A stretch of DNA of 61,375 nt from Deltaproteobacteria bacterium (GTDB lineage Bacteria > Desulfobacterota > DSM-4660 > Desulfatiglandales > B25-G16). Of this stretch, positions 18,716-47,840 are shown in pieces (positions within the stretch are counted from its first letter, which is position 1; each line of letters begins with the position of its first letter). The notes under the pieces were generated by a model that saw only the letters and a program-made list of their open reading frames with translations, made no database searches and was not told the DNA's origin. The position numbers and the translations under genes are program-made. The stretch spans positions 1-61,375 of the forward strand of contig JAFDDT010000004.1 of the NCBI GenBank assembly GCA_019310725.1, written 5' to 3'.

Positions 18716-19360
18716 CTACTCGATTTCTATGATCCTCCCTGCCCCTCCGCTAACGTATTTCTCCGGATATAGAGACCTTATCTCTGGCTTGTATTGGGTG
18801 CAGTGACAGGGACAGACTAAATCGAGATCTTTAATGACATCAAACTGGTTGAAACCATGAAGCCCTCCGATAAGGGCATAAGGCTTCCCAAATTGTGAGG
18901 CCGAGTTGAGAATATTCTCCACACCTGGATGGGAACATCCTGCGATTACAGTGATATCTTTCTCTGTCTTGATAGCCAGAGACTGCTCAATACCCTTTAG
19001 CTCTCCGGTAGAAAACACACCTGTGCAAATCTCCACCGGATCAGTAACCCTTATGACCTCCTTAGCAAGCAGGGGTTGCGGGCATGATGCGGGTATGTAG
19101 ACCTTAACTTCACTATTCTTTTCTAAAAACCGGGAAAGCCCGCCAATATGATCCCAGTGGGCATGGGAGATAACAACTATATCGATTGAGAGAGGATCAA
19201 TAGTAAGTTTATCCATATTGTGAAGGAGAATTGAACCATTTGCACCTGTGTCAAAAAGGATCCCGGGCATATCCTCCCTCTCTATCAGGCAAGAAAAGCC
19301 CCAATCTGACTTAAGCCCTTTGGTATGCACCTCATTATCGTAAGTTAGTGTTATCTTCAT
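18716..19360 (-). CDS. MBL-fold metallo-hydrolase
   Basis: HAHWDHIGG (HxHxDH) motif. 214 aa. Confidence 0.8.
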   Translation of the reverse strand: MKITLTYDNEVHTKGLKSDWGFSCLIEREDMPGILFDTGANGSILLHNMDKLTIDPLSIDIVVISHAHWDHIGGLSRFLEKNSEVKVYIPASCPQPLLAKEVIRVTDPVEICTGVFSTGELKGIEQSLAIKTEKDITVIAGCSHPGVENILNSASQFGKPYALIGGLHGFNQFDVIKDLDLVCPCHCTQYKPEIRSLYPEKYVSGGAGRIIEIE

Positions 19361-19414
19361 CCGATTCCCTCGACCTCCTTCCAGGGATGGATCAGCATTA
19401 CACCACCTCTCTGC

Positions 19415-20467
19415 TTAAAACCCTGCCACATAGCACACTATCCCTGCCACCAGCCCGACAACAAAATTAATCATCTTGACAGAAAGAAAACTCCTCTTTG
19501 ACTCTGCGAGCAAAGGAAGCATTCCGTGACCATCTTGAACAATAGAACTTGCCAGGAGAACACCAAAGGGAATTGCCCCTTGTGCAAACAGGGTAACAAA
19601 TATCATGTGTGGGCCAGATTCTGGGATAAGCCCGATAAGGCACCCAATCAACATCACAGTCAAATAATTTGCCTTTATCCAGCCTCCCAAAGCCAGGTAA
19701 TCCATCAAGAAATACATTGCCAAAAGGGCACCGAATGTCCACAGAAATACCCTTGGGATATGAACCTTCACTATATGTTCCCAAAGGTGTTCTTCAAGAA
19801 AATGCTCTGGAACCGTAGAAACAACAAAAAAGGCCAGTAATGAACTAATCAATAGTGTTACTCTCATCCAGTTCCATACTGCTGGGCCCAGCTGACCAGA
19901 AACCAATCCAGCAACAAATAACCCCAACAGAAGTATTAAAGACGCTCTTTCAAGACTAAGATTCCTATATTGATTCAAGATCTCACCCTTGGGATAACAA
20001 ATACATTTATCCTCTTTATGAAATTCCAGATGCCCACTCATTTTTTCTACCAACACAGAGCCTGGTTTGAATAGGGCATCGGTTATGGGACCTGCAGCAA
20101 TTCCCACTATAAAGGTAATCAGAAATAGAAGAAGGGCCTTGGCTGGAAACATGGAGAGCATAACATAGGCCTCATCCCCGCTCGTTGCAATCATCACGGT
20201 CACCAAGGCCCCAAAACTCACGATACTGTGGACATAGAGCGTGACAACTGTGAATGCACCGAGACAACCCGGTGTAGCACCCAGGAAGGCTGACAAAAGA
20301 TATTGAATCCATCTCGATTTTTGTAGTGAATTTTGCCAATCCCCTCTGGTCTGGACATTCAGGTACTCTATGATGAGCATCATCACAAAGACAAAACCGG
20401 TAATCATTAAGGCGTGTTGAAGGATTTCTATGATCATCTGCACCCTCTGCTCTATTTGGGATCTCAA
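19415..20467 (-). CDS. Polytopic membrane protein, possibly a 10-TM ArsP_2-type putative metal exporter
   Basis: About 10 hydrophobic helices across 350 aa. The family assignment is from memory of similar sequences and is weak. The TTG start at 20467 is uncertain. Confidence 0.4.
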   Translation of the reverse strand: MRSQIEQRVQMIIEILQHALMITGFVFVMMLIIEYLNVQTRGDWQNSLQKSRWIQYLLSAFLGATPGCLGAFTVVTLYVHSIVSFGALVTVMIATSGDEAYVMLSMFPAKALLLFLITFIVGIAAGPITDALFKPGSVLVEKMSGHLEFHKEDKCICYPKGEILNQYRNLSLERASLILLLGLFVAGLVSGQLGPAVWNWMRVTLLISSLLAFFVVSTVPEHFLEEHLWEHIVKVHIPRVFLWTFGALLAMYFLMDYLALGGWIKANYLTVMLIGCLIGLIPESGPHMIFVTLFAQGAIPFGVLLASSIVQDGHGMLPLLAESKRSFLSVKMINFVVGLVAGIVCYVAGF

Positions 20468-20643
20468 CTTCTTTTTCGCAGCTTGTTCAGTTCCTTCTCT
20501 TTATCCTCGATAACTGCCTCTAACTCCTCAATGACTAACATCTGTTGTGGACGGACAGAATGGGCAGGGAGGGAATCCTCTCGGTCCTTTAATTGTGCCT
20601 TCAGCTCGGCTATCTCTTTTTCCAGTTCTTCCTCTCTTCCCAT
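20464..20643 (-). CDS. Small coiled-coil protein (59 aa), absent from the >=60 aa ORF track
   Basis: My translation is MGREEELEKEIAELKAQLKDREDSLPAHSVRPQQMLVIEELEAVIEDKEKELNKLRKRS. The stop overlaps the next gene's start by 4 nt. It is co-directional with the operon. Confidence 0.5.
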   Translation of the reverse strand: MGREEELEKEIAELKAQLKDREDSLPAHSVRPQQMLVIEELEAVIEDKEKELNKLRKRS

Positions 20644-20655
20644 AACGAATGCCTT

Positions 20656-20940
20656 TCAGTCAAAAAGATCGTCTTCTTTATTGTCATCCATTCTCAACCA
20701 GATCCTAAATAGTTTTTCACCACTCTCCTCAAAGCACTTGTATCCTGTAGAATCCACTTCCTCCACCATAATCTCTCCTAACTCTCTGCATTGGGCCAGC
20801 CAGTTTTTGAAATGTTCTCCACCACCAAAGTATGCCTTTTTCCATCTTCTCCCTAGTGCGTCTGTCTTCTCTTTAACCAGTTCTTCTTCAGCCATCCTTT
20901 CCCGGATCGTCTTCCCCTCGGTGTCTCCTTGATCAGCCAT
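20656..20940 (-). CDS. Hypothetical acidic protein (94 aa)
   Basis: ORF tightly packed within the minus-strand gene string. No motif recognised. Confidence 0.45.
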   Translation of the reverse strand: MADQGDTEGKTIRERMAEEELVKEKTDALGRRWKKAYFGGGEHFKNWLAQCRELGEIMVEEVDSTGYKCFEESGEKLFRIWLRMDDNKEDDLFD

Positions 20941-21030
20941 TTGCTTCTCTTCAACCCAGATACGCTATGTATTTGACAGTTGCCTCTCCTCCCACAAACA
21001 ACGGACAATGTTGGAGGTAATCAATGCCAA

Positions 21031-21207
21031 TCAGGTCATAATACCGGTAGATTTACCCATATCCAGCTCATTGGAGCGCTTTGACCTGATCTTTGGTTTT
21101 AGCACCTCTTTAAAAAACCGCAGTGCCTCCTCGGCATCATTGTCCAAAAGTATAGCCTCTATCCTCATAGCCTCCTCATGCGAAAACTCAAGTACCATAT
21201 TGGCCAT
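21031..21207 (-). CDS. Small hypothetical protein (58 aa), absent from the ORF track
   Basis: My translation is MANMVLEFSHEEAMRIEAILLDNDAEEALRFFKEVLKPKIRSKRSNELDMGKSTGIMT. A GAGGAG RBS lies about 9 nt upstream of the ATG at 21207. Confidence 0.45.
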   Translation of the reverse strand: MANMVLEFSHEEAMRIEAILLDNDAEEALRFFKEVLKPKIRSKRSNELDMGKSTGIMT

Positions 21208-21275
21208 TGCATACTTCTCCTCTTACCTGGCCATTTCCTAGCAAAGACACGAAATGGCCAGGCTACACTATATAC

Positions 21276-21491
21276 CTACCTTGTCATTGGTGCCCCACAT
21301 TTAGGACACTGAACCTCATAACACGGAGAACCCTGCTGATGGGAAACCTTGAAACCACAGTTGGGGCAAATACATTCTCCCCCTGTCCCGAGTCCACGGC
21401 CGCCCATCCTGCCACGGCCACCACCGCGTCCAAGGCCTCTCCCCGTTCCCGGGCCTCTTCCGGCAGGCCCTGTACCATCTCCTCTTGGCAT
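21276..21491 (-). CDS. DUF5320-type N-terminal motif + RG-rich linker + C-terminal zinc-ribbon (71 aa)
   Basis: It starts MPRGDGTGPAGRGPGTGRG, continues through a (G/R)-rich run, and ends CPNCG...CPKCG. Confidence 0.7.
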   Translation of the reverse strand: MPRGDGTGPAGRGPGTGRGLGRGGGRGRMGGRGLGTGGECICPNCGFKVSHQQGSPCYEVQCPKCGAPMTR

Positions 21492-21591
21492 CTAACTCAC
21501 CTCCTCTTTGATTATTATCTGATAGTTATTATATCGTGATGTACAAAATATGTATCAACAAAGACAAAATGAGTGGGCTCCATGCTCTATC

Positions 21592-22011
21592 TTACATTCC
21601 CTTCAAATTCTCGATTCTATCCAAGATACCATCAATCCGCTTTGATAATATTGTAACCTCTTTTTTCAATGATTCTAGAGAAGGAACCGGTCCTGGTCTT
21701 GAGGCAGAAATAGGTTGATAGAATCTTTGTTGGTATCCAAAAACTGGAACTCTCATTCCGACAACTTCACTTATGCTATATCCTGCCCATGGATTCTGCC
21801 TGCAACCAAAAGGGGATGCACTACCCTCTGCCACTGCCTTGGCAAATTGCCCACAATTGTCATATCCACAAAGACCACAATTCAAATGAGGTAGGATATC
21901 ATAGATCTGTCTTATTTTATCCTTATTTGTTGCTGCCACCTCTCTTCCACCTTTGTTTGCAATTACTCCAGAGCCATATAGAAATAGTTTCTCCGCCCTC
22001 TCCACACCCAC
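21592..22011 (-). CDS. RnfB-N-type putative Fe-S domain protein with C-terminal coiled coil
   Basis: LNCGLCGYDNCGQFAKAVAEGSASPFGC matches the Cx2CGx2xCx..C Fe-S domain seen in RnfB and CFeSP N-termini. The C-terminus LESLKKEVTILSKRIDGILDRIENL is a heptad coiled coil. Confidence 0.65.
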   Translation of the reverse strand: MGVERAEKLFLYGSGVIANKGGREVAATNKDKIRQIYDILPHLNCGLCGYDNCGQFAKAVAEGSASPFGCRQNPWAGYSISEVVGMRVPVFGYQQRFYQPISASRPGPVPSLESLKKEVTILSKRIDGILDRIENLKGM

Positions 22012-22041
22012 AACAGTTGATATCTGGTGTATGCTGTCGAT

Positions 22042-22581
22042 TTAACCAGCATCGTATAATTCTTTCAAGACATTGGCTAATTGCTCATTTGCTTCTTCAA
22101 TCTTTTTTACTGCCTGTAATATATGGCTGTAAGTTGCTGCATCTCCCGCGTTCTTAATCTTCTCTTCCCATTTCCTAAATTTCTCACTATGGTTTTTGTG
22201 ATGATCGATCCAGGAAGTGAGGATAACCCTAAGCCTACCCTTTCCATCAGTCGGGAATCTTTTCAGAATATCCTCAACCTTTGAACGAATCATATGTTCA
22301 GGCACTGCACCGAGAATCTCGTCAACCTTTTCGCCGTTATTGAAATACATCTGCATGGGGATGCTCACAATATTGAATTGCTGGGCAGTACGTGGATTCT
22401 CATCCACATTGATCTTGCAGAACTTGAAATCGTTATATTCCTCTGAAAGCTTATCATATATGGGTGAGACCATACGACAGGGACCACACCACGGGGCCCA
22501 AAAATCGACCTCTGTAGGAACATCTGATTCTAAAACCTCTTGCTCAAAATTGCTGTCTGTAATCTCTGCTACCTTCGTCAT
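22042..22581 (-). CDS. Thioredoxin with a ~70-aa helical C-terminal extension
   Basis: WCGPC active site in a thioredoxin fold. 179 aa. Confidence 0.85.
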   Translation of the reverse strand: MTKVAEITDSNFEQEVLESDVPTEVDFWAPWCGPCRMVSPIYDKLSEEYNDFKFCKINVDENPRTAQQFNIVSIPMQMYFNNGEKVDEILGAVPEHMIRSKVEDILKRFPTDGKGRLRVILTSWIDHHKNHSEKFRKWEEKIKNAGDAATYSHILQAVKKIEEANEQLANVLKELYDAG

Positions 22582-22717
22582 GCTACCTCCTTGAATTGGT
22601 ATTGTTAATAGGATATATGAAAACCATCTGATGAACTTTGGAGCCGTTCCTTCTGATAGGCGGCACCGAACCGAAGCTTTCGTGAAATCACTACCGGCTA
22701 TATTTTGAGATTCAGAT

Positions 22718-23314
22718 TCACCTTAGCTTCTTCCTAAAATTCATTACTCTTCCTGTCTCAATGTCCTTATTGTTATGTATTAGGATCAGGGAATACTTCT
22801 TTTCCAGATAGAAATTGGCACGCTCTATCTCATCTCTTGCCTCGGATTCTATATGTTTCGGCCAGACTGAAATAAATCCATTTGTTTTTGTGATCCTGTA
22901 AATTTCATCCATGAGTCTTCTTCTTTCATCCATCTCGGGGAAGTAGTAACGGTGAAGGACATCGAAGAGAAGGGCCACATCTACCGATTCTTCTGGTAGC
23001 TCGATCTTTGGCCCCCCGGATGAAGTTATTATTTCCATATTATTCAAACGGGCTGAGTCAGCCTTTTGCATCAGGTCTCTTAGGACATCTTTGTCTTTAT
23101 CCAGGGCATAAACCTTGCCTTTCCTACCAACTATTCTGGCCACTGGAATCGTGTAGGTGCCACAGCCACAACCAAAATCCAACACGGTCTGCCCTCTCCT
23201 AATGCCTATCCTCTGCAGTATCCGAACGGCTCTTTCATTTAAACCAATCCTCCCCCCTTCCTCATCCCTTCTGAGCTCTTTGCCATGTTCATGTGTTTCA
23301 GCATGTAACCGCAC
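22718..23314 (-). CDS. Class I SAM-dependent methyltransferase
   Basis: Motif I is VLDFGCGCGTYT. 198 aa. Confidence 0.75.
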   Translation of the reverse strand: MRLHAETHEHGKELRRDEEGGRIGLNERAVRILQRIGIRRGQTVLDFGCGCGTYTIPVARIVGRKGKVYALDKDKDVLRDLMQKADSARLNNMEIITSSGGPKIELPEESVDVALLFDVLHRYYFPEMDERRRLMDEIYRITKTNGFISVWPKHIESEARDEIERANFYLEKKYSLILIHNNKDIETGRVMNFRKKLR

Positions 23315-23415
23315 GGGATAATACCTTGTTAAGCTCTAGCCACGTACCACCTCTTCGCCCGCGGCGTGATGTAAACTTGATGATCCTCACATGAAATTTC
23401 GCCGGTGGGTATCTT

Positions 23416-23643
23416 TTAACTCGAGGCCAATTCCGGCACATCACCTTCGCCGAGGATATTGGTGATGTCCAATACTACCTTAGAATTTTCAAAGTCTACT
23501 TTGAGGACTTTACCTTTGATTACCTTCTCCTCGCCAAACATGTTTTCCATTCTTACGTATTGGTCATCAAGCTCTATGCCGACAATATTCTCCAGAATCG
23601 GCTCATCCATCTCCGTATTAGGGTATGCCTTTGCTAGACACAT
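23416..23643 (-). CDS. cooT: CooT-family small nickel-binding protein
   Basis: 75 aa beginning MCLAKAY (Cys2 is conserved in the family). It lies directly downstream of the CooC-like ATPase. Confidence 0.65.
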   Translation of the reverse strand: MCLAKAYPNTEMDEPILENIVGIELDDQYVRMENMFGEEKVIKGKVLKVDFENSKVVLDITNILGEGDVPELASS

Positions 23644-23714
23644 TTTAAAGACCCCCTTTCTCTCTAATTATTTCTATTCTTATCAATTATCATGGCCTAC
23701 TCCAGCCAGAGGAA

Positions 23715-24518
23715 CTAATGCCCTGGATTAGCTCTTGAAACAAGTGAATCCACCACATCTATAATCTCCTCACCTGCCTTTCCTTTGCCAAAGCTGACAC
23801 CTTCTAAACCGGATTGGAAAATCTCTGCATCATAATGGATACATCCGATCATTTCGATCCCTTTCGTGCCCAATTCATGCTCTAGCTTTGAGGCTATCTC
23901 ATCTGATGGAACTTTGTTAAGGATAGCCCAAATGTTATCGATCCCAATCCCACGAGAGAGGTTATTTACTCGTTCAGCGAGCTGGAGAGATTCAAAGGAA
24001 GGCTCAACCACAACAAGCACAGTATCTATGCTTGTCTCAACACCCCTGCCAAAGTGCTCCACTCCCGCTTCCATATCTACAATAGCTATTTCGTCTCTGG
24101 CGAGGCTAAGCTTCCTCAAAAATTCACGACTCAAAACCCCCATGGGGCAGGCGCAACCTTCCAGTGACTGGAGGATCTTCCCTATGCTCACCAGCCTTAG
24201 ATTATCCCTCTTAAGGATATTGTCGACGGGAATATCATCAACCATGATGTGTCCTTGGGTCATCACCCTCATTCCGGTCTCAGCCTCAGCAGCGGAATAG
24301 CCCCTTTTCATCTTTTCTTGGACCTTCTTTTTGCCACCGACAAGCTCCATGAGGGGTACAGGCGGCTGGTCAAAACCAAACATCCGAAAAAGGCCTGAAT
24401 TTGACTCATCTGAGTCCACAACTAGTACCCGGTAGCCCATTGTTCTCGCCTGATTGGCTAACAAGGTGACTATTGTACTCTTGCCGCTACCCCCTTTACC
24501 GCAAACGGATATCTTCAT
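23715..24518 (-). CDS. cooC: CooC/AcsF-type nickel-insertion ATPase (MinD/ParA superfamily)
   Basis: Deviant Walker A CGKGGSGKST and the CxC metal motif (EGCACPMG). 267 aa. Confidence 0.8.
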   Translation of the reverse strand: MKISVCGKGGSGKSTIVTLLANQARTMGYRVLVVDSDESNSGLFRMFGFDQPPVPLMELVGGKKKVQEKMKRGYSAAEAETGMRVMTQGHIMVDDIPVDNILKRDNLRLVSIGKILQSLEGCACPMGVLSREFLRKLSLARDEIAIVDMEAGVEHFGRGVETSIDTVLVVVEPSFESLQLAERVNNLSRGIGIDNIWAILNKVPSDEIASKLEHELGTKGIEMIGCIHYDAEIFQSGLEGVSFGKGKAGEEIIDVVDSLVSRANPGH

Positions 24519-24551
24519 TTAATCACCCCATGCAGAATGTATTTGCAACGA

Positions 24552-25082
24552 CTATGTTTTGACAGGCCCTTTTTGCCCCTTGTGGCTCTTTGCCTTCTGC
24601 GTGTGTACCTGCTTGATACTCACCCCAAGCACTTCACCTGTTCCTGCCCTATTGCTGACCGAATCCTTGCATTGTTCGCAGTACCCTTCCATATATAGTT
24701 CAGTTTTGGTGACGTTAAAGCCATAATCAAGCTGCACCTTCCTAATTATTTTCCGAATGAGGTTGCTATCAAACTCGATAACATTACCACAGCAACTGCA
24801 CACCAGATGCTGATGCCCAGCCAAGTCCTTTATCTCATAATAGCAGTTCACCTGCCCAAGCCTTCTCTCCTCGATAAGGCCCAAATCCTTGAATAGCCGC
24901 AGGGTGCGGTATACTGTAGCCAGGCTTATAGACTCATTTTTCCTGCTAGCACGCCTGTACAGTTCTTTGGCGCTGATATGTCCACCTGCTTTCTGGATTA
25001 GGCTTAAGAGTAACTTGCGCTGACCAGTTACCGGGCGACCTTCCATGTGGCTTTCTATGTTGCGAATGCTTCTCATTCTCAT
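24552..25082 (-). CDS. Fur-family metalloregulator (Fur/PerR/Nur-like) with N- and C-terminal extensions
   Basis: Winged-helix region ISLATVYRTLRLF, then HHLVCSCCGNVIEF and CEQC structural-zinc motifs. Confidence 0.8.
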   Translation of the reverse strand: MRMRSIRNIESHMEGRPVTGQRKLLLSLIQKAGGHISAKELYRRASRKNESISLATVYRTLRLFKDLGLIEERRLGQVNCYYEIKDLAGHQHLVCSCCGNVIEFDSNLIRKIIRKVQLDYGFNVTKTELYMEGYCEQCKDSVSNRAGTGEVLGVSIKQVHTQKAKSHKGQKGPVKT

Positions 25083-29832: not shown

Positions 29833-30714
29833 TCATGACTGATCTGTATTCAGGTCAAATCGAGCAGCCAGCCTCTCCCATATGTCCACAACCGCCCGGG
29901 CGGCCTGGGATGCCCCATCATATTCGATGACAGTCTGCTTCTGGACCATGGCCTTAGTGAATGACGGATCAAAGGGGATCCTTCCCATAATAGGTAAACC
30001 CCTATCCCTGGCATACTGTTCTATTACCACAGTCATATCCGGATTAAGGTCAAATTTGTTTATGCAAACGCTGGCTGGAATCCCAAAATGGTTGGCTAAC
30101 TCAACAACCCTGTCCATATCGTGCTGTCCAGAGAGGGTGGGTTCAGTTACAATAAGTACCGCACTAGCACCGGCTATTGATGCAATAACAGGACAGGCCA
30201 GACCAGGGGGCCCATCAGTGAGAATAAGGCTCAAGTCCCTCTCCTGTGCGAGCTCTTTGGCCTGCTTGCGGGTTAGCGTTACCAGTTTTCCGGAGTTGTC
30301 CTCAGCAATACCGAGTCTGGCATGTACCATGGGCCCAGCGCGTGTCTCTGATACAAACAATTCACCACAAGTCTTGATGGGAAAATCTATCGCATCTTCC
30401 GGACAGAAATAGACACAGACCCCACATCCTTCACAGTCAATAGGATCTACCTTATACTCCGAACTAATGGCATCGAAGCGACACAGCTCCCTGCACAGGC
30501 CGCATTCAGTACACTTATCCAGGTTTATTTCAGCCCTATGCCCTTCTTGAAAGTCTTGCCTCTCTTTTATGTCCGGTTCCAAGATCAGATAGAGATCAGC
30601 AGCATCTACATCGGCATCACACAGAACCTTATCCTTGGCTAGAGATGCAAAGGCGGCCAGCAAACTGGTCTTGCCGGTTCCACCCTTGCCGCTTATTACA
30701 ATAAGTTCTTTCAT
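29833..30714 (-). CDS. MinD-superfamily P-loop ATPase with inserted 2x[4Fe-4S] ferredoxin domain (COG1149-like)
   Basis: Walker A SGKGGTGKTS, then CTECGLCRELC and CEGCGVCVYFCP inserted between the ATPase segments. Confidence 0.85.
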   Translation of the reverse strand: MKELIVISGKGGTGKTSLLAAFASLAKDKVLCDADVDAADLYLILEPDIKERQDFQEGHRAEINLDKCTECGLCRELCRFDAISSEYKVDPIDCEGCGVCVYFCPEDAIDFPIKTCGELFVSETRAGPMVHARLGIAEDNSGKLVTLTRKQAKELAQERDLSLILTDGPPGLACPVIASIAGASAVLIVTEPTLSGQHDMDRVVELANHFGIPASVCINKFDLNPDMTVVIEQYARDRGLPIMGRIPFDPSFTKAMVQKQTVIEYDGASQAARAVVDIWERLAARFDLNTDQS

Positions 30715-30820: not shown

Positions 30821-31663
30821 TTACTCCTGTCTTACAAGATCGGTTATTTTTTCATAGAGGTGAATAAATTTCGCTTTCCAGTCAGGCAACTCCTCTACCA
30901 GGAGTTTACCCCTTGAATAGGTCTCTGCGATCTGGCGGTCAAATGGGATCTCCATAAGGATGGGGATGTCTTCCTGCTCTGCATATTCTGTAACCTTGGT
31001 ATCGCCCAGATCTGAGCGATTTATGATAATGCCATGAGGGATGTTGAGGATCTTAACCATGCCAACGGCGAGCTTCAGATCATTCAGACCAAATGGGGTA
31101 GGTTCCGTTACCAGGATCACAAAATCGGTGCCCTTTACTGAACTGATCACTGGGCATGACGTGCCCGGAGGGGCATCAATTATGTTTACCTTGTCCGGTT
31201 GAACAGCAGCCCTGACCCTTTCAATCACGGGAACCGCCATCACCTGGCCAACAAAGAGGCGGCCATGGGAAAATTCGAGACTATCCCTGTGACCACCTTC
31301 AAAGACCCCCATTTCTCTGTCTATTTCAGTAATTGCATCTTCGGGGCACACCTCCACACATCCGCCACAACTGTGGCACAACTCGGGAAAGGTTAAGACA
31401 GATTTGCCCACAACAACAATGGCCTGGAACTGACAGATATCCTGACATCGCCCACACAGGGTACATTTATCCATGTCTACCTGGGGGACTTTTAGGCCCA
31501 CCCTTTCAGTGTATGTAACCTCCGGCTGGATAAAGATATGGTCATTTGGTTCCTCTACGTCACAATCCAGAAGGTTTACCCCGGGTCCCAGGGCCACTGC
31601 CAGGTTGGTAGCTATTGTTGTTTTTCCAGTTCCACCCTTTCCGCTTGCTATGCTTATGATCAT
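30821..31663 (-). CDS. MinD-superfamily P-loop ATPase with inserted 2x[4Fe-4S] ferredoxin domain (second paralog)
   Basis: SGKGGTGKTT, CTLCGRCQDIC and CHSCGGCVEVCP. The ATG at 31663 has an AGGAAG RBS (the ORF track GTG is at 31699). Confidence 0.85.
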   Translation of the reverse strand: MIISIASGKGGTGKTTIATNLAVALGPGVNLLDCDVEEPNDHIFIQPEVTYTERVGLKVPQVDMDKCTLCGRCQDICQFQAIVVVGKSVLTFPELCHSCGGCVEVCPEDAITEIDREMGVFEGGHRDSLEFSHGRLFVGQVMAVPVIERVRAAVQPDKVNIIDAPPGTSCPVISSVKGTDFVILVTEPTPFGLNDLKLAVGMVKILNIPHGIIINRSDLGDTKVTEYAEQEDIPILMEIPFDRQIAETYSRGKLLVEELPDWKAKFIHLYEKITDLVRQE

Positions 31664-31816
31664 TGTCGTCTTCCTATTTGGCAGGAGTTCAACTTTCACC
31701 TGGCAGATTTCAGCAAAAACAGAGGGACTCGTGTTGTTATCGAATCCCTCAATTTTAAGTGTTTAAAGTCAGCTTAAGTGCCTACTGCATACTCCTTACT
31801 GCCTAGTAGATAATCG

Positions 31817-32653
31817 TCACTTCGTAAGATTAGCGACCTCATCTACAATCTTGGTGAAATTTACTGTGTAAGGCAGATCTTTTTGCTCCATCCAGTTTAC
31901 TGTTCCATTATCACCCTCAAGGACAATATCCGGCTCCAGAGGGAGGCTTCCCAGGAGTTTGAGCCCCGCCTTTTTGGCAGTGATAATACCACCATTTGTC
32001 TTAAAGAGATCAATGGTCTTGCCACAATGAGGACATTTCAAGCCACTTCCATTTTCTATCAAACCAAGGATTTGCATATTGACCTGATGGCAAAAATTTA
32101 TTGATTTTCGCACGTCAGCAAGAGAGATCTCCTGGGGTGTAGTTACAATAATTGCCTTGGTGTCCGGTATGATTTGGGCTATCGTCAAGGGTTCATCCCC
32201 TGTGCCAGGGGGACAGTCAATAATGAGATAGTCCGAATTACTCCAGGCAATGTCATTGATAAACTGCTTAATCACCCCGATTTTCAAGGGGCCCCTCCAG
32301 ATTGTTGCAGTGTCCTTATCTCCAAGCAGCGCCTCTATCGACATCACCTGCATGTTCGGCAGATAGCTTAAGGGAATCCCCTTTTTGAGCCCGGGAGAGG
32401 AAACTATTTCCCCCTTGAGTCCCAAGAGCCGGGGGATACTCGGACCGTGTAAGTCTACGTCCATCAGTCCTACCTGGAAGCCTTTCCTGGCCAGCCCAAC
32501 CGAAAGATAGGCGGCGATAGTACTTTTGCCAACACCGCCTTTTCCACTCATTACTAATATCTTGTTTTTAAACCCTTCAAGTTTTTCTCTTATCTCTTTA
32601 TCCTGGGCCTCCATCATGGCCTTTTTGCGTTTCATCTCTTCGTCTTGTTGCAT
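31817..32653 (-). CDS. Mrp/NBP35/ApbC-family Fe-S cluster carrier ATPase
   Basis: MSGKGGVGKST Walker A, DCPPGTGD, and the CPHCG motif. 278 aa. Confidence 0.85.
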   Translation of the reverse strand: MQQDEEMKRKKAMMEAQDKEIREKLEGFKNKILVMSGKGGVGKSTIAAYLSVGLARKGFQVGLMDVDLHGPSIPRLLGLKGEIVSSPGLKKGIPLSYLPNMQVMSIEALLGDKDTATIWRGPLKIGVIKQFINDIAWSNSDYLIIDCPPGTGDEPLTIAQIIPDTKAIIVTTPQEISLADVRKSINFCHQVNMQILGLIENGSGLKCPHCGKTIDLFKTNGGIITAKKAGLKLLGSLPLEPDIVLEGDNGTVNWMEQKDLPYTVNFTKIVDEVANLTK

Positions 32654-32938
32654 TATGCTATCTTTTCCTCCTCATTGATCTTAAAAACCATATAATATCA
32701 AACCTCTTTCAATAATCATTATATCCACCGTTGCATACAGGCCACTTCCTCAGTGCTGCCCTCGCCCATGAGCAAATAGCTCTTGAGCTATTCGGCGTCG
32801 AGCTCATGACCGAGAGGCTCACTGCCAAAAGGCTCGGCCCGCATGGGGTGAGCATAATAGGGATCATGGTCACCACTCCAAGCGTTCAGCTCTGTGGTGA
32901 ATATCTCTCCTGAACCTCTATACCCTCCCCGGCAATTG

Positions 32939-33127
32939 TCAGTCAACTTCAGTAACAGTGATCGCCTCCTGTTCACAGACCTCGATACAGCTCTCACATC
33001 CAATGCACTCCTCTGCATTGACAGGAACTGACTTTTCATCCTGCATTTCAAAGACATCTACAGGACAGACATCTACGCACTCCTCGCAGCCTATACATTT
33101 TTCTTTATCAACCTCTACCTTGTACAT
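32939..33127 (-). CDS. Small 2x[4Fe-4S] ferredoxin (paralog of 712-903)
   Basis: MYKVEVDKEKCIGCEECVDVCP...CIGCESCIEVC. By my count 54 of 62 aligned residues are identical to the 712-903 product. The ATG at 33127 has an RBS. Confidence 0.9.
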   Translation of the reverse strand: MYKVEVDKEKCIGCEECVDVCPVDVFEMQDEKSVPVNAEECIGCESCIEVCEQEAITVTEVD

Positions 33128-33239
33128 ATCCTTACCCCTTTCAAGTATGGTGCACAATAACGAGTAACAGATAATCCTTTCCTTAGAAATGTCAAGGTCT
33201 TTTTATCAGACCAACTGATCCCTCGTACGTAGCAGGCAG

Positions 33240-33584
33240 CTACTTGGCCGCTTTCTCCAATTCTTTGATCCTTGCATCGATCTGGTCCATCTGCTGCTTT
33301 AGCATTTGGGCCTGGTCTCTTAAGTAGTTTATCTCCTGCTCTGGGGCCATAGGAGCGCCAAATGGTGGTATCCCTGGCCCTCCAAATCCTCCCTGTGGCG
33401 GGTAATTAGGTTGACCATAGGGCGACATCTCTGACGTTCCATATCCTCCTGGAGGTGGGTAATAGGGCATCTGTGGCATACCTCCGCAAGGATTCATCCA
33501 GCCACCTGGCATAGGATAGCCCATTCCCATGGGCGGTCCCCAGGGAGGAGGCCATCCTCCATATGGATAAGATTGGTAATGCAT
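33240..33584 (-). CDS. Low-complexity Pro/Gly/Met/Tyr-rich protein with C-terminal coiled coil (DUF5320-like C-terminus)
   Basis: AAAGGAGG RBS. The N-terminal ~80 aa are almost only P, G, M, Y and W. The C-terminus reads EQEINYLRDQAQMLKQQMDQIDARIKELEK. Confidence 0.7.
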   Translation of the reverse strand: MHYQSYPYGGWPPPWGPPMGMGYPMPGGWMNPCGGMPQMPYYPPPGGYGTSEMSPYGQPNYPPQGGFGGPGIPPFGAPMAPEQEINYLRDQAQMLKQQMDQIDARIKELEKAAK

Positions 33585-33610
33585 ATCATCCTCCTTTCTA
33601 CATCAATTAG

Positions 33611-33815
33611 GACGCAGACCCGCGTGCCCGCCATCCATAGTATTACGGCCGACGGGCCAGACGGCGGGCAGATTTTCGCCGATGCCCGCAGATATTTATT
33701 CTATTGGTTCTTTATATTCAAAATCCTGGTAGCCTGCCCGCTAATCCCGACTGGTCGCGATAGCAATGGCAGACGGGTCTGCGTTCATGCGCTTCCAAAA
33801 TGGAAATCCCTATGC
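33611..33815. repeat. Structured ~200-nt interspersed element (copy 1), closed by an inverted repeat
   Basis: gacgcagacccg (33611-33622) pairs with cgggtctgcgt (33774-33784). About 155 nt (33664-33815) align at roughly 80-85% by eye with 47543-47697. It sits inside an operon between two small genes. Confidence 0.7.
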
Positions 33816-33829
33816 TATTAAGTTATTTT

Positions 33830-34072
33830 TTACGAATAAGGATAACCATACGGGTTTCCCGTCCACATACCATAAGGAGCATAGGCCGATTGATAGCTAT
33901 ATCCTCCATAAGGGGCATAAGGGGTAAACCCTGGGGCCCTATAGGCCCAGCCTCTGGGTAGGCCTCCCCTTCCCAAGCCAACATAAGGCCACGGGGGAGA
34001 ATATCCCCTAAATCCGAAGCCTCTTCCAAAACCTCTGCCCCTTCCCATTCCAAATCCTCTGCCGTAAGGCAT
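33830..34072 (-). CDS. RG/GY-rich low-complexity mini-protein (80 aa)
   Basis: AGGGGG RBS. The sequence is MPYGRGFGMGRGRGFGRGFGFRGY...YAPYGGYSYQSAYAPYG. G, Y, P and R together make up about two thirds of residues by my count. Confidence 0.65.
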   Translation of the reverse strand: MPYGRGFGMGRGRGFGRGFGFRGYSPPWPYVGLGRGGLPRGWAYRAPGFTPYAPYGGYSYQSAYAPYGMWTGNPYGYPYS

Positions 34073-34161
34073 AATTATACCCCCTTTGCACCTTAAACCG
34101 TGACTCTAACGGAGCAGTCCTGGCAGATACTAAGACTGCTGCAAAGATCTAATTATTTAGC

Positions 34162-34425
34162 TTACCACCATCCTCTGCCTCTGCCAAATCCTCTGCCACC
34201 GCCAAATCCTCTGCCAAATCCATAGGCACCATATGGATAGCCTGCATATGGAGTAGTGTATCCGGCTCCATAAGGTGGTACGTAGCCCATACCGTAAGGG
34301 CTGCCATATGGATAGGCTCCCATAAAGGGTGGTCTTGCTCCTGCATAATAGGGGTTACACCATCCCCTGCCTCCTCCGGTCATTGGGCCCATTCCTCTGG
34401 GTCCGGTTCCATCGAATCCTGGCAT
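34162..34425 (-). CDS. DUF5320-type N-terminal motif followed by GY/RG-rich low-complexity tail (87 aa)
   Basis: An AGGAGG RBS lies 8 nt before the ATG at 34425. The protein starts MPGFDGTGPRGMGPMTGGGRGWC, continues YPYGSPYGMGYVPPYGAGY, and ends GFGRGFGGGRGFGRGRGWW. Confidence 0.7.
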   Translation of the reverse strand: MPGFDGTGPRGMGPMTGGGRGWCNPYYAGARPPFMGAYPYGSPYGMGYVPPYGAGYTTPYAGYPYGAYGFGRGFGGGRGFGRGRGWW

Positions 34426-34450
34426 CTCATTCACCTCCTTTCTGCTTTTC

Positions 34451-34858
34451 TTAAGGAAAGTGGATCCCTCGCCGCCTTCTCCCTCTACCTGTGCCGGGTC
34501 CTGGTGGGCCTTTGCCCCACTGGCCAGGACGACCAGGCATCATAAATTGAACATCGAACAAATTGCCCTGCAAAAATGCGTGCAGTACATCCTCCACCTG
34601 GCCTGATATCCAGGCGATCAGATTGATCCCAGCAGTTGTGACCATGTTCGCAAGGGGTTTTGAAATAGCTCCACAGATAAGTGTATCAACTCCCAAACCG
34701 GTAAGTCTCATAGTTTTGCTGGGAGGAAAATATTCACTGATATCCGTCTCAAATCGTGAGTATTCACCTTCTTCTCCCACCTCAACCACTACCAGTCGCG
34801 ACGCTGCATCAAAAACGGGCGACACCCTCCCATTCCATGTTGGTATGGCAATTTTCAT
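34451..34858 (-). CDS. NifX/NifB-C-like small protein (divergent subfamily) with Gly/Arg-rich tail
   Basis: MKIAIPTWNGRVSPVFDAA...LICGAIS... fold pattern. The tail is GRPGQWGKGPPGPGTGRGRRRRG. Confidence 0.65.
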   Translation of the reverse strand: MKIAIPTWNGRVSPVFDAASRLVVVEVGEEGEYSRFETDISEYFPPSKTMRLTGLGVDTLICGAISKPLANMVTTAGINLIAWISGQVEDVLHAFLQGNLFDVQFMMPGRPGQWGKGPPGPGTGRGRRRRGIHFP

Positions 34859-34891
34859 TCTTGCCTTTATGTCTTTTGGTAATGGAAGAAT

Positions 34892-35104
34892 CTATTTTTC
34901 CAGATCTTTTATCCGAGACAGAATCGAATTAAGCTGATCCCGGAGAGCCTTTGCCTCTTGCTTGAGCGCTCCAATCTCTTGATCAGGAGATGCGGGAGGA
35001 GCCGTCTGATTTGGGCCATATCCTGCTTGCATACCCATGCCACGGCCCATACCCATGCCACGGCCCATGCCCATGCCACGGCCCATGCCCATGCCACGGC
35101 CCAT
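34892..35104 (-). CDS. (GRGMGM)n repeat protein with DUF5320-like C-terminal coiled coil (70 aa)
   Basis: The ATG at 35104 is preceded by AAGGGAG. The protein is MGRGMGMGRGMGMGRGMGMGRGMGMQAGYGPNQ...EIGALKQEAKALRDQLNSILSRIKDLEK. It overlaps the 3' part of the upstream gene in another frame. Confidence 0.6.
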   Translation of the reverse strand: MGRGMGMGRGMGMGRGMGMGRGMGMQAGYGPNQTAPPASPDQEIGALKQEAKALRDQLNSILSRIKDLEK

Positions 35105-35429
35105 TGGGTGATAATTCTCCCTTCTTATATCTATCAATCGCCTCTCTAATGGAACCACTAACGCCGACAATCACATCGACACCGGCTGCATTTAGGGTTC
35201 TGCTGGCATTGGGGCCAACATTTCCGGTTATAACCACAGTTGCCCCTGTGGAAGCGATAAACTGGCCTGACTGAATACCTGCTCCCCCGCCGAGAGACAT
35301 ACTCTCGTTCTCAATGGCCTCAAAGGTCATGTCATCTGGATTAACGATTAAAAAATACGCGCATCTACCAAATCTTGGATCTATTTCGGCGTCAAGATCC
35401 GTTCCCGTTGAACTAAACGCTATTTTCAT
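34983..35429 (-). CDS. NifX/NifB-C-like small protein; C-terminal limit uncertain (frame continues into a GPWHGH repeat)
   Basis: MKIAFSSTGTDLDAEIDPRFGRCAYFLIV...GGGAGIQ...ITGNVGPNA...IREAIDRYKKGEL is the complete domain. The same frame then reads PNGPWHGHGPWHGHGPWHGYGPWHGY through the tandem repeat to a stop at 34983. Confidence 0.7.
   Translation of the reverse strand: MKIAFSSTGTDLDAEIDPRFGRCAYFLIVNPDDMTFEAIENESMSLGGGAGIQSGQFIASTGATVVITGNVGPNASRTLNAAGVDVIVGVSGSIREAIDRYKKGELSPNGPWHGHGPWHGHGPWHGYGPWHGYASRIWPKSDGSSRIS
35034..35105. repeat. Tandem repeat, 18 nt x 4 (cccatgccacggcccatN)
   Basis: The units are 35034-35051, 35052-35069, 35070-35087 and 35088-35105. They differ only at the last base. 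Confidence 0.95.
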
Positions 35430-35464
35430 AAGCTATTTCTCCTTCCTTTTCTAAAATTATCCCT

Positions 35465-35480
35465 AGCAGCTTCTGTGCCA
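35465..35480 (-). promoter_or_regulatory. Sigma-54 (-24/-12) promoter
   Basis: The minus strand reads TGGCACagaagCTGCT against the consensus TGGCAC-N5-TTGCW, with the correct GG/GC spacing. It ends 35 nt upstream of the ATG at 35429 and is followed by an AAGGAAGGAG RBS. Confidence 0.65.
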
Positions 35481-35587
35481 TGTTTGTGCTATCCTCATTG
35501 AATAGGATAACTCATTAATATTTCTGATGATATTCAGTTGGAATAAAAAAATATATGAAATACATCATACACAGAATGTATTATTAT

Positions 35588-35625
35588 TGGAACATATTTT
35601 ATGCAATGTTCCAGTATTGGAACAC
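35588..35625. promoter_or_regulatory. Candidate enhancer-binding-protein site (UAS): TGGAACAT-N10-ATGTTCCA plus a third half-site
   Basis: A perfect 8-bp inverted repeat (35588-35595 / 35606-35613) and TGGAACAC at 35618-35625. The sites lie about 110-160 bp upstream of the sigma-54 promoter, with AT-rich DNA in between. Confidence 0.45.
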
Positions 35626-35657
35626 TTAAAAGGTCCTAGACAACCTGCAAAAGGCCT

Positions 35658-37460
35658 TTATGGTGGTTTCCTGCGAAAGTAATCAAAAACATTTTTTGCT
35701 ACTAGTTGGGCAATCCCTGGAACTTGCATTAACTCTTTGAGCCCTGCCTGGGCTATAGCGTCGATATCTCCAAAAAATCCAAGCAATAACCTCTTTCTCT
35801 TTGGCCCAATCCCCGGAATTTTATCCAGCTCGGACATAGTTAACTTTTTCTTCCTTCTTTTTCGGTAATAACTGACAGCCCTCCGGTGGGTCTCATCTCT
35901 TATACGGATAAAAAGAGACAGGACTGGGTGATTGCGCGCAAGGTTAAGGGGGTTTTTCCTGTTTGGAAGATATATTTTGTCCAAAGCCCCCTGTCTTCCT
36001 CGATCAGCTTTCGCAATGGAGATAACATCAGGTGGCTTCTCAAGGCCAATAGCACCGAGCGTTTTTAAGGCTACCGCCAGATGACCCTTTCCACCATCTA
36101 TTACAAAAAGGTCTGGCGGTTTGCCCTGTTTCAGTCTTCTTCTCATTCCCTCTGCAATCATGGCATAATCATCTATCCCCCCCACCTCTTTTATCCGGTA
36201 GTTACGATAGCCGGATTTCTGCGGCAGCCCTCTGACAAAGGTGACTATGGAGGCTACGGCAAGATCACCTTTGAGATTAGATACATCTATCGCCTCTATG
36301 TGCACTGGCTTTCTTCTTAAGTGCAGTAACGATTTTGCTTCCTCAAGAAGAGCAGACTCATGGGTTTTTTGGCGTCTTAACAGTGCATTGTCAGCGTTCA
36401 CCGCAGCCATGTGGGCAAGCCTTCTCTTATGTCCCTTGGAGGGAACCGAAATAGATACCTTTCTCCCAGCTATCCCTGTCAACCATTCAGAGATCAGTTT
36501 TCTATCATCTATTGCATCTGATAGGATTATGTCAGGAGGGAAAAATTGTTTCTCTCTGTAATATTGTTTGAGGAATGCCTCCAGTATTTCACTTGAATAC
36601 TCCCATGCTCCACGTATGGAATAACTTCTGCTTCCAACCATAACACCGCCCCGCACCAAGAGAATCACCACCTCTGCTTCTTTACCAGAGTAAGATAGTC
36701 CGATAATGTCTTGATCCCTCATCTTGCTGGAAACTACTATTTGCTTTTCCACGGTTTTTTCTATAGCCCTGATTTGATCTCTCACCATGGCAGCCTTTTC
36801 AAAATTGAGCTCCCTCGAGGCATTATCCATCGCCTTCTTCAGCTTCGAGATTAATTCCTTGTTCCGTCCTTCCAAAAATAGCCTTACCTGATCAACTAAC
36901 TCCTGATAATCCTCTCCGCTGACATCCATACAACAGGGTGCCAGACACCTGCCGAGCTGATAATTCAGACAAGGCCTCGACCGCTTGGGGATTTCCCTGG
37001 TAGTACATTTTCTCAAAGGAAAGATAGGGCCTATCAAGTGCAGAGTGGAGCGTACCTCTGACACAGACGGAAAGGGGCCGAAATAGAGAGCCCCATCATT
37101 TCTCATCCTTCGTACAATAGCCAAGCGAGGATACCTCGTATTGATATCCAGCTTAACGAAGGGATAATTGGCATCATCCTTGAGATCTACGTTATACCTA
37201 GGCCGATATTTTTTTATGAGATTCCCTTCAAGTATCAAGGCCTCAGTTTCCGTACCAGTTATGATATGATCTATCCTTTCGGTATTCCTGATAATGTACG
37301 CTAACTTACCGGACTGATTACTGCCGTGGGTGAAATAGGAATTGATGCGTTTCTGTAGGTTTTTGGCCTTGCCAATATAGATTATCTTTCCAGACTTATC
37401 CTTAAAGAGATAAACTCCTGGGTTTTGAGGGAATTCTTTGATGCTATCACCACTCAGCAT
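35658..37460 (-). CDS. uvrC: Excinuclease ABC subunit C
   Basis: GIY-YIG N-terminus (GVYLFKDKSGKIIYIGKAKNL), a UVR domain, and a C-terminal (HhH)2. 600 aa. Confidence 0.95.
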   Translation of the reverse strand: MLSGDSIKEFPQNPGVYLFKDKSGKIIYIGKAKNLQKRINSYFTHGSNQSGKLAYIIRNTERIDHIITGTETEALILEGNLIKKYRPRYNVDLKDDANYPFVKLDINTRYPRLAIVRRMRNDGALYFGPFPSVSEVRSTLHLIGPIFPLRKCTTREIPKRSRPCLNYQLGRCLAPCCMDVSGEDYQELVDQVRLFLEGRNKELISKLKKAMDNASRELNFEKAAMVRDQIRAIEKTVEKQIVVSSKMRDQDIIGLSYSGKEAEVVILLVRGGVMVGSRSYSIRGAWEYSSEILEAFLKQYYREKQFFPPDIILSDAIDDRKLISEWLTGIAGRKVSISVPSKGHKRRLAHMAAVNADNALLRRQKTHESALLEEAKSLLHLRRKPVHIEAIDVSNLKGDLAVASIVTFVRGLPQKSGYRNYRIKEVGGIDDYAMIAEGMRRRLKQGKPPDLFVIDGGKGHLAVALKTLGAIGLEKPPDVISIAKADRGRQGALDKIYLPNRKNPLNLARNHPVLSLFIRIRDETHRRAVSYYRKRRKKKLTMSELDKIPGIGPKRKRLLLGFFGDIDAIAQAGLKELMQVPGIAQLVAKNVFDYFRRKPP

Positions 37461-47460: not shown

Positions 47461-47840
47461 GAGAAGTCATTCTGAATCATTCCGCCCACACGGGAGAGCG
47501 AAGAACCTACGATTTGCGGGCAGGTACTAGAACTATTGAATTAGGCCGCCGATTTTCGCAGATATCCGCAGATATTTATTCTAGTAGTACTTTTATCTAA
47601 AATCTTGGTAACCTGCCCGCTAATCCTGACTGGTCGGGATAGCGATGGCAGGCGGGTTTGCGTTCATCTGCGTCCAAAAGGAAGTTCCTATACGATAAAT
47701 CTAGATTCTTCGTCGCTTCGCTCCTCAGAATGACAAAGTGTCGCTCCTCAGAACCGTCCTCGAGCGAATCGGAGGAATGACAAAGTGTCGCTCCTCAGAC
47801 CTGTCCTCGAGCGAAGCGGAGGAATGACAAAGTGTCGTTG
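47461..47840. mobile_element. Composite MITE-like non-coding element: inverted unit + copy 2 of the structured element + 47-nt tandem units
   Basis: 47543-47697 is homologous to 33664-33815. The 47-nt units are at 47741-47787 and 47788-47834, with an internally deleted unit at 47717-47740. An inverted related copy lies at about 47466-47510 (gtcattctga vs tcagaatgac). No ORF is present. Confidence 0.5.

Follow-up and report, generated by a model that had tools for sequence, protein, structure and literature searches.

IssA from Pyrococcus furiosus consists of a Nitro_FeMo-Co domain and a disordered tail of 70 residues, which is Pro-rich at first and then cationic, aromatic and Gly-rich (PMC5524996). 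This tail was proposed to wrap anionic thioferrate, (FeS2-)n, electrostatically, and the protein forms particles of 20 to 300 nm (PMC5524996). A second related system is the ORP complex of Desulfovibrio vulgaris, which is putatively involved in cell division and includes the polar protein MrpORP (PMC6345978). The orp operons are σ54-dependent (PMC3897727, PMC8359166), and the orange protein binds a Mo-Cu-S cluster (PMC6345978). Here, we analyzed three consecutive small genes, A, B and C, in a 61,375-nt stretch (the window) of contig JAFDDT010000004.1, assembly GCA_019310725.1. IssA comes from a hyperthermophilic archaeon, whereas the window belongs to a mesophilic deltaproteobacterial-type metagenome-assembled genome. 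The three products are members of DUF5320 (Pfam PF17253), a known family of bacteria and archaea, and a literature search for functional studies of DUF5320, PF17253 or IPR035205 found none. The cluster that holds them is, judged by its genes, an ORP-like anaerobe cluster. We propose, with a probability of about one half, that disordered cationic and aromatic tails, tethered through coiled coils, act together with Nitro_FeMo-Co domains on anionic metal-sulfur species.

The original prediction, made from the DNA letters, described three consecutive small low-complexity proteins rich in Gly, Tyr, Pro, Arg and Met. The three open reading frames (ORFs) are present on the minus strand with the translations it quoted. 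Protein A (33240-33584, 114 amino acids (aa)) comprises a disordered region and a coiled-coil module, M3, and contains 20% P, 17% G, 10% M and 9% Y. Its residues 1-80 are rich in P, G, M, Y and W and are disordered, without secondary structure, in the AlphaFold2 model. Residues 81-113 form a helix with pLDDT values of 84-95 and hydrophobic residues at 9 of the 10 a/d heptad positions, and the predicted C-terminal coiled coil is thus upheld by both the heptad pattern and the confident helix. The disordered part of A lacks Arg and is non-cationic, and the net charge of A is -2. Protein B (33830-34072, 80 aa) starts with (GRGFG)n repeats, followed by motif M2 (FGFRGYSPPWPYVGLGRGGLPRGWAY) and a tail rich in Y, P and G. 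It contains 26% G, 16% Y, 14% P and 10% R, with a net charge of +8 and an isoelectric point (pI) of 10.1, and was disordered throughout in AlphaFold2 (pLDDT ~50, pTM 0.10, no secondary structure). Protein C (34162-34425, 87 aa) consists of M1 (MPGFDGTGPRGMGPMTGGGRGWC), a GY/PY-rich stretch, (GRGFG)n repeats and a terminal WW, and contains 32% G, 14% P, 14% Y and 8% R (pI 9.7). Its conserved start is the ATG at 34425, as the original prediction had it, although the mechanically called ORF opens at the GTG at 34434. Each of the three genes is preceded by a strong Shine-Dalgarno site (GGAGG or GGGGG) 6-8 nt 5' of the ATG. Their low complexity greatly exceeds what chance would give. The window has 148 ATG-initiated ORFs of 60 aa or more, and the combined content of G, Y, P, R, M, W and F is highest in B, C and A (0.80, 0.83 and 0.61, respectively). 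Furthermore, 42-67% of their 12-aa segments have an entropy of 2.5 bits or less, compared with 6% in UvrC. The RGG/GY-type composition was borne out by the low-complexity measures, and AlphaFold2 predicts disorder for B and for residues 1-80 of A. A fourth relative, D (34892-35104, minus strand), lies just outside the interval of the original prediction on its upstream side and consists of (MGRG)n repeats and a coiled coil M3.

The family assignment was made with the PF17253 model, which has a gathering threshold of 27 bits. A, C and D scored 33.4, 35.4 and 43.2 bits, respectively, all above the threshold. The model misses B, for which hmmscan returned no Pfam or NCBIfam match. However, B has orthologues of ~80 aa at 67-79% identity, and it matches hundreds of PF17253-annotated proteins through M2 (phmmer, down to E 2e-13). 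In the relatives of B this motif reads FGFRGxSPPWPYxGxGRGGLPR[GC]WAY, and 15 of its columns do not vary among 23 sequences. By these matches, B is a divergent DUF5320 member. Three modules recur in the family: M1 (MPxxDGTGPxGxGPxTGxGRGxC), M2 (FGFRGxSPPWPYxGxGRGGLPR[CG]) and M3, a coiled coil of four heptads. They are joined by Gly/Tyr/Pro-rich linkers and by (GRGFG)n or (MGRG)n repeats. In the archetype P0118, all three modules stand in one polypeptide, whereas in the window they are divided among three to four genes, with only M1 in C, only M2 in B and only M3 in A and D. Natural fusions join C and B (P0013, P0010), M2 and M3 (P0017, P0021 and others) or all three modules (P0118), and the genes C, B and A follow one another in the order in which M1, M2 and M3 stand in the full-length relatives. 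The N-terminal part of A (PPPWGPPMGMG) resembles a degenerate M2 that is free of Arg, the residue whose absence from the disordered part sets A apart from the family. M3 of A is homologous to M3 of D, with 47% identity across 34 aa (E 8e-10). On this evidence, A, B, C and D are paralogous DUF5320 members, each with a different subset of modules.

One expectation of the original prediction was not borne out by the family comparison. Runs of such genes had been thought rare in bacteria, but DUF5320 is a large family (P0118 alone retrieves 1,390 clusters at 50% identity, E ≤1e-3) in which two or three consecutive members are routine. The original prediction had also asked whether composition rather than sequence is conserved; discrete sequence motifs such as M2 are kept as well. 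A sequence search of the Protein Data Bank gave no match for DUF5320 or NifX2, the neighboring Nitro_FeMo-Co protein described below, and protein A had no exact match in public assemblies. One family match, P0364, has 1,590 aa with 16 DUF5320-like stretches; it could be either a very long repeat protein or a false match caused by low complexity.

To assess selection, we fetched 80 related metagenome loci (73-89% identity) with NifX2 as the probe and mapped the cluster proteins onto them. The median ratio of nonsynonymous to synonymous substitution rates (dN/dS) in the annotated frames was 0.16 for A, 0.17 for B, 0.19 for C and 0.16 for D. The comparison genes in the same loci gave 0.11 (NifX2) and 0.06 (ferredoxin), and the two shifted sense frames gave 1.1-3.5. 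Differences at third codon positions were two to three times those at the other positions. The annotated frame was open in all orthologues (A, 45/45; B, 12/12; C, 60/60; D, 42/42), whereas the other frames were seldom open, and changes in repeat number were always in-frame. Because the annotated frames show dN/dS of 0.16-0.19 as opposed to at least 1.1 in the others, remain open and acquire only in-frame indels, A, B and C are almost certainly real DUF5320 genes. The long alternative-frame ORFs that the original prediction had noticed across the region were also seen. Together with the recent tandem repeats at the DNA level, the disruption of the NifX1-D gene in the window and the absence of B from most relatives, they could suggest spurious or decaying ORFs without function in repetitive DNA. 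Such an origin is extremely improbable in view of the frame-specific purifying selection, the open frames, the in-frame indels, the strong Shine-Dalgarno sites and a family of at least 1,390 clusters at 50% identity; the selection analysis excludes it and effectively refutes a non-functional reading. The conserved frames are the annotated ones and not the opposite-frame ORFs, whose conservation the original prediction had named as evidence against itself.

The repeats also affect annotation. In the sister contig L096, the public gene call at 5552-5710 places C in a wrong frame (52 aa, MAALTVWATYH...), and the call at 6389-6619 shortens A to 76 aa. Genes of the DUF5320 type are likely under-annotated because their repeats are free of stop codons in several frames, and the sister contig serves as a practical warning that gene callers mis-frame or truncate them.

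The Nitro_FeMo-Co domain (IPR003731) occurs in two neighboring proteins, NifX1 and NifX2, while A, B and C themselves lack it. NifX1 (34983..35429, minus strand; PF02579, 84.6 bits) and D are parts of one gene in the relatives, with NifX1 as the N-terminal half and D as the tail. In the window, a 74-bp deletion at 35105/35106 splits NifX1-D, shifts the frame and removes the linker TGQANVPDHYGMGMGGGQTSFPGGG. An intact NifX1-D gene of 203 aa is present in two sister contigs (L096 and L097) that share 99.8% identity with the window, and NifX1-D was a single ORF of ~200 aa in 18 of 18 related loci. The deletion could reflect strain variation, the first stage of a pseudogene or a misassembly of the repeats. 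The remaining D reading frame keeps an ATG and a Shine-Dalgarno site (GGGAGA), contains an 18-nt tandem repeat (4.2 copies, 98% identity) and encodes 13% Met. A synthetic query of the NifX1 domain and D retrieved more than 100 natural proteins of 176-215 aa at 100% coverage, nearly all of them annotated with both PF02579 and PF17253. In another fusion, P0281, a 2x[4Fe-4S] ferredoxin domain (Fer4) is joined to DUF5320. The His-rich PWHGHG tail of the NifX1 ORF in the window was rejected as a genuine sequence, because the deletion shifts the frame and the tail is an out-of-frame read-through; the dN/dS of the tail frame was 3.55.

NifX2 (34451..34858, minus strand; PF02579, 32 bits) has a short, cationic, Gly-rich tail, MPGRPGQWGKGPPGPGTGRGRRRRG, with a pI of 12. 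This tail (34451-34540) looks like a degenerate version of M1, the motif with which the next gene, C, opens (MPGFDGTGPRGMGPMTGGGRG). The likeness suggests, from the two sequences, a past duplication or fusion-fission event at the NifX2/C junction.

We compared these proteins with the IssA orthologues of Thermococci, which were recovered with a degenerate KIAIPTNGGG pattern; the published IssA cloning primer had no exact genome match. The tails of the orthologues follow the scheme PAYGYGPYPP...GWGRGRGRGFGRGWGRGGRGWG...YC...GWW, i.e., a PY/GY-rich segment, (GRG[FW]G)n repeats, a Cys and GWW. The order of segments in C (PY/GY-rich, (GRGFG)n, WW) is that of the IssA tails. In composition, B and C were the two ORFs of the window closest to the IssA tail, with distances of 0.20 and 0.21, respectively, compared with a window median of 0.54. 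The published criteria (PMC5524996 supplement) define IssA by a pI of at least 9, fewer than 5 Cys and at least 20% Gly in the last 40 aa, and IssX by a pI of at least 8, fewer than 10 Cys and at least 10% Gly. NifX2, with a pI of 8.98, one Cys and 25% Gly in the last 40 aa, falls within the IssX limits and narrowly under the IssA cutoff for pI (8.98 vs 9). Intact NifX1-D ends in the coiled coil, and the criterion of the last 40 residues does not suit it. IssA and the window proteins have in common a Nitro_FeMo-Co domain and a disordered cationic/aromatic tail, which are covalently fused in relatives of the NifX1-D type. They differ in that most of the tail mass in the window is supplied in trans by separate small proteins, with coiled coils that IssA lacks.

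The genomic context was examined in seven distant, independently chosen DUF5320 contexts. All seven contained one to three consecutive DUF5320 genes together with genes for Nitro_FeMo-Co proteins and ParA/CbiA(-Fer4) ATPases. The typical neighborhood of the family, with Nitro_FeMo-Co proteins and CbiA-Fer4 ATPases, is the same as that in the window. Genes for DUF134, Zn_ribbon_8, NifU_N, FeoAB, FUR, CooT and an OrpR-type σ54 activator were often also nearby. A tandem pair of CbiA-Fer4 ATPases was present in five of the seven contexts; the other two, L098 and L099, had only ParA/CbiA-type ATPases without Fer4. OrpR-like PAS-σ54 activators head the DUF5320-containing clusters in L098 and L099, and CooT adjoins the DUF5320 genes in L100.

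The window itself contains a second locus of the DUF5320 type at 21276-22011 on the minus strand, within 18716-25082. It encodes a 71-aa protein with M1, RGG repeats and a CxxC...CxxC zinc ribbon, which scored 21.9 bits with PF17253 (below the threshold), and a 139-aa PF04060 FeS protein that ends in a DUF5320-like (M3-like) coiled coil. The neighbors of this locus encode FUR, a CooC-like ATPase, CooT, a methyltransferase, a thioredoxin, an ArsP_2 metal exporter and a protein with a metallo-beta-lactamase fold.

The genes around A, B and C resemble the ORP system in several respects. Across ~80 loci, the genes keep the order UvrC, NifX1-D, NifX2, C, (B), A, (ferredoxin), Mrp and two MinD-ferredoxin ATPases. 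The ferredoxin (32939..33127, minus strand, 62 aa from ATG) is of the 2x[4Fe-4S] type (Fer4_7, 67.6 bits) and is kept in related loci. The Mrp/NBP35-type Fe-S carrier ATPase (31817..32653, minus strand, 278 aa) scored 296.7 bits with PF10609. With the MrpORP model NF041136 it reached 360 bits, under the cutoff of 450, and covered model positions 4-251 of 365, i.e., the P-loop part only. The tandem MinD/CbiA ATPases with inserted 2x[4Fe-4S] ferredoxin domains (30821-31699 and 29833-30714, minus strand) are Orp3/Orp4-like, and the pair is kept in related loci. The window and the ORP system share two MinD-like 2x[4Fe-4S] ATPases (Orp3/Orp4), a Nitro_FeMo-Co protein with a single domain (Orp8), a carrier of the Mrp/NBP35 type and a σ54-type promoter. 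However, the Mrp of the window lacks the fused Di-Nase domain of MrpORP, and the five components described for the ORP complex include no DUF5320 protein.

The σ54-type -24/-12 element, TGGCACAGAAGCTGCT (35465..35480, minus strand), lies 51 nt 5' of the NifX1 ATG, has the form TGGCAC-N6-TGCT and is the only match in the window. Of 26 distinct orthologous upstream regions, 18 have TGGCAY-N6-TGCW at the corresponding place in the alignment, with 0.008 matches expected per 150 nt. The conserved spacing is N6; no related locus fitted TGGCAC-N5-YTGCW. An AT-rich block (aaatattaat..gttatcct) is conserved further 5' of the element. A scan of 32900-35700 found no terminator or σ70-like promoter interrupting the cluster, and an Rfam scan of the same interval returned nothing relevant. 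No gene for an OrpR-like σ54 activator was found among the window neighbors scanned. Judged by this conservation, the element is probably the promoter of the operon, and the genes are probably co-transcribed.

DUF5320 genes are co-located with genes for metal-sulfur-cluster proteins in a conserved manner and are recurrently fused to such proteins. The DUF5320 proteins probably function with the Nitro_FeMo-Co/ORP-like machinery. In the mechanism that we propose, the cationic and aromatic disordered segments would act like the C-terminal tail of IssA, neutralizing and wrapping anionic metal-sulfur species. The candidate anions are thioferrate-like Fe-S polymers, Fe-S clusters and thiometallates, which would be held non-covalently by the Nitro_FeMo-Co domains. 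M3 of A would pair with M3 of NifX1-D and thereby tether extra tail mass to the domain protein, and Mrp and the MinD-ferredoxin ATPases would load, unload or organize the assembly. The binding of metal-sulfur anions, the pairing of A with D and the formation of higher-order particles are inferred steps of this mechanism. Among the readings considered, a role as flexible charged tails in iron-sulfur handling is the most likely. By analogy with IssA, a polyelectrolyte mechanism like that of its tail is possible, and we put it forward tentatively.

Several observations weigh against this proposal. The IssA tail showed no significant homology in composition-adjusted BLASTP (E 0.45 for C and 1.1 for B), and of three IssA tails only one gave a PF17253 score, 15.3 bits (E 0.045), with a cutoff of 27. 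Because the composition-corrected alignment is not significant, the link to IssA is claimed as a functional analogy and not as homology. No fusion of NifX2 with C was found among the top 120 relatives retrieved with a synthetic query of the NifX2 domain and C. Simple charge neutralization fails to explain protein A, which is non-cationic (net charge -2). It also leaves the dispensability of B unexplained: of the 63 loci with both C and A, only 8, in a sub-clade, have B as well, and B is dispensable in most relatives. Furthermore, the ORP complex of D. vulgaris has been tied to cell division and not to storage (PMC6345978).

The DUF5320 proteins might instead be adaptors or activators of the MinD/ParA-family ATPases of the cluster, stimulating the ATPase and linking it to some cargo or site in the cell. 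Partner proteins of the McdB type are small, combine a disordered region with a coiled coil and are encoded beside ParA/MinD-family ATPases. The DUF5320 proteins can be likened to them in layout, in that a disordered basic peptide and a coiled coil would act as in McdB, MinE and the N-termini of ParB. The tandem CbiA-Fer4 ATPases in the window cluster and in five of the seven distant contexts would suit such a role, as would the proposed cell-division and polar role of the ORP complex and MrpORP (PMC6345978). However, the fusions seen were to the cluster-binding domains Nitro_FeMo-Co and Fer4 and to a Zn ribbon, and none was to an ATPase. We consider an adaptor function unlikely; it is compatible with the proposed action of the tails on metal-sulfur anions, and the two are not mutually exclusive.

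Two further functions would follow from the residue composition. As small metallochaperones or buffers, the proteins could bind soft metals directly, with Met-rich motifs (MGRGMG, PMGMG) and Cys motifs (GRGxC in M1, M2) chelating Cu(I), Ni, Zn or Mo/W. A and D contain 10% and 13% Met, M1 and most M2 sequences keep a Cys, and the orange protein has a bound Mo-Cu-S cluster (PMC6345978). The second locus of the window, where the M1 and Zn-ribbon protein stands with CooT, a CooC-like ATPase, FUR and ArsP_2, and the CooT gene in L100 point in the same direction. However, the orthologues of B lack the Cys of M2, the single Cys of A is replaced by Tyr in its orthologues, and His/Cys-rich clusters are absent, PWHGHG being an out-of-frame artefact. 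Direct chelation is quite unlikely. The original prediction had raised Met- and His-rich tails that bind soft metals; its metal-related direction agrees with the metal-sulfur context, but the His-rich part was produced by the frameshift. Its leading idea was that the proteins are FUS-like and drive nucleic-acid-dependent phase separation or hydrogel formation. RGG/RGF repeats, GY-rich tracts of the [G/S]Y[G/S] kind and predicted disorder are indeed shared with FUS/hnRNP proteins. In addition, a DUF5320 protein came up in an archaeal motif scan for its possible binding to G-quadruplexes (PMC7565180), and a gene for DUF134, a putative DNA-binding protein, is often nearby. The window proteins, however, have no RNA recognition motif or zinc-finger RNA-binding module. 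RNA-binding domains and RNA-metabolism genes are absent from the window cluster and the seven distant contexts, all of which hold metal-sulfur-cluster machinery. The proteins are fused to and encoded beside metal-cluster proteins, and M1 and M2 are conserved in sequence, unlike purely compositional prion-like domains. The RNA-biology reading therefore did not hold up beyond the composition, and a FUS-like function is very improbable. Phase separation as such may still occur, since IssA, the analogue, forms large protein-mineral particles (PMC5524996).

The genes described here belong to a known, functionally uncharacterized family in its typical setting, and the observation is not categorically new. 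It yields a specific, testable link between DUF5320 and iron-sulfur storage of the IssA type, which bears on how anaerobes store or traffic iron-sulfur or thiometallate species. This hypothesis draws on the fusions to Nitro_FeMo-Co and other cluster-binding domains, the mimicry of the IssA tail by the Arg/Gly/aromatic members and the purifying selection despite low complexity. DUF5320 sits in ORP/NifX-like/MinD-ferredoxin clusters that are equally poorly understood. In its widest form, the hypothesis would make DUF5320 the lacking tail component of an IssA-like system for Fe-S/thiometallate storage and trafficking in mesophilic anaerobes. Polycationic and aromatic disordered modules, free or fused and tethered through coiled coils to Nitro_FeMo-Co domains, would nucleate anionic Fe-S or Mo-S polymers and wrap them into protein-mineral condensates, and the Orp3/Orp4 MinD-like ATPases and Mrp would load, unload or position the assemblies. 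We regard this extension as speculative and rather unlikely. If true, it would assign a function to a family of more than 1,000 clusters and to the enigmatic ORP complex.

Some minor features of the locus were also noted. In some relatives, an ARMT1-like gene (PF01937) lies between the ferredoxin and Mrp genes (L002, 2081-2935; L003, 969-1823), whereas the corresponding interval in the window is only ~285 nt and has no such gene. The spacer between B and A contains an insert of ~155 nt (33668..33821, minus strand), a structured repetitive element rich in GC hairpins with a fold z-score of -3.15. A second copy, 83% identical, lies at 47548-47699. The element is present at L005 and L006, absent from L002 and at the contig end in L007, and is not part of the protein system. 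In L001 (129-2517), phage-like genes, including one for an SU10-type major capsid protein, come directly after a homologue of B and a homologue of A that is broken inside the coiled coil. Either a prophage has inserted into the A gene at this junction or the contig may be chimeric.

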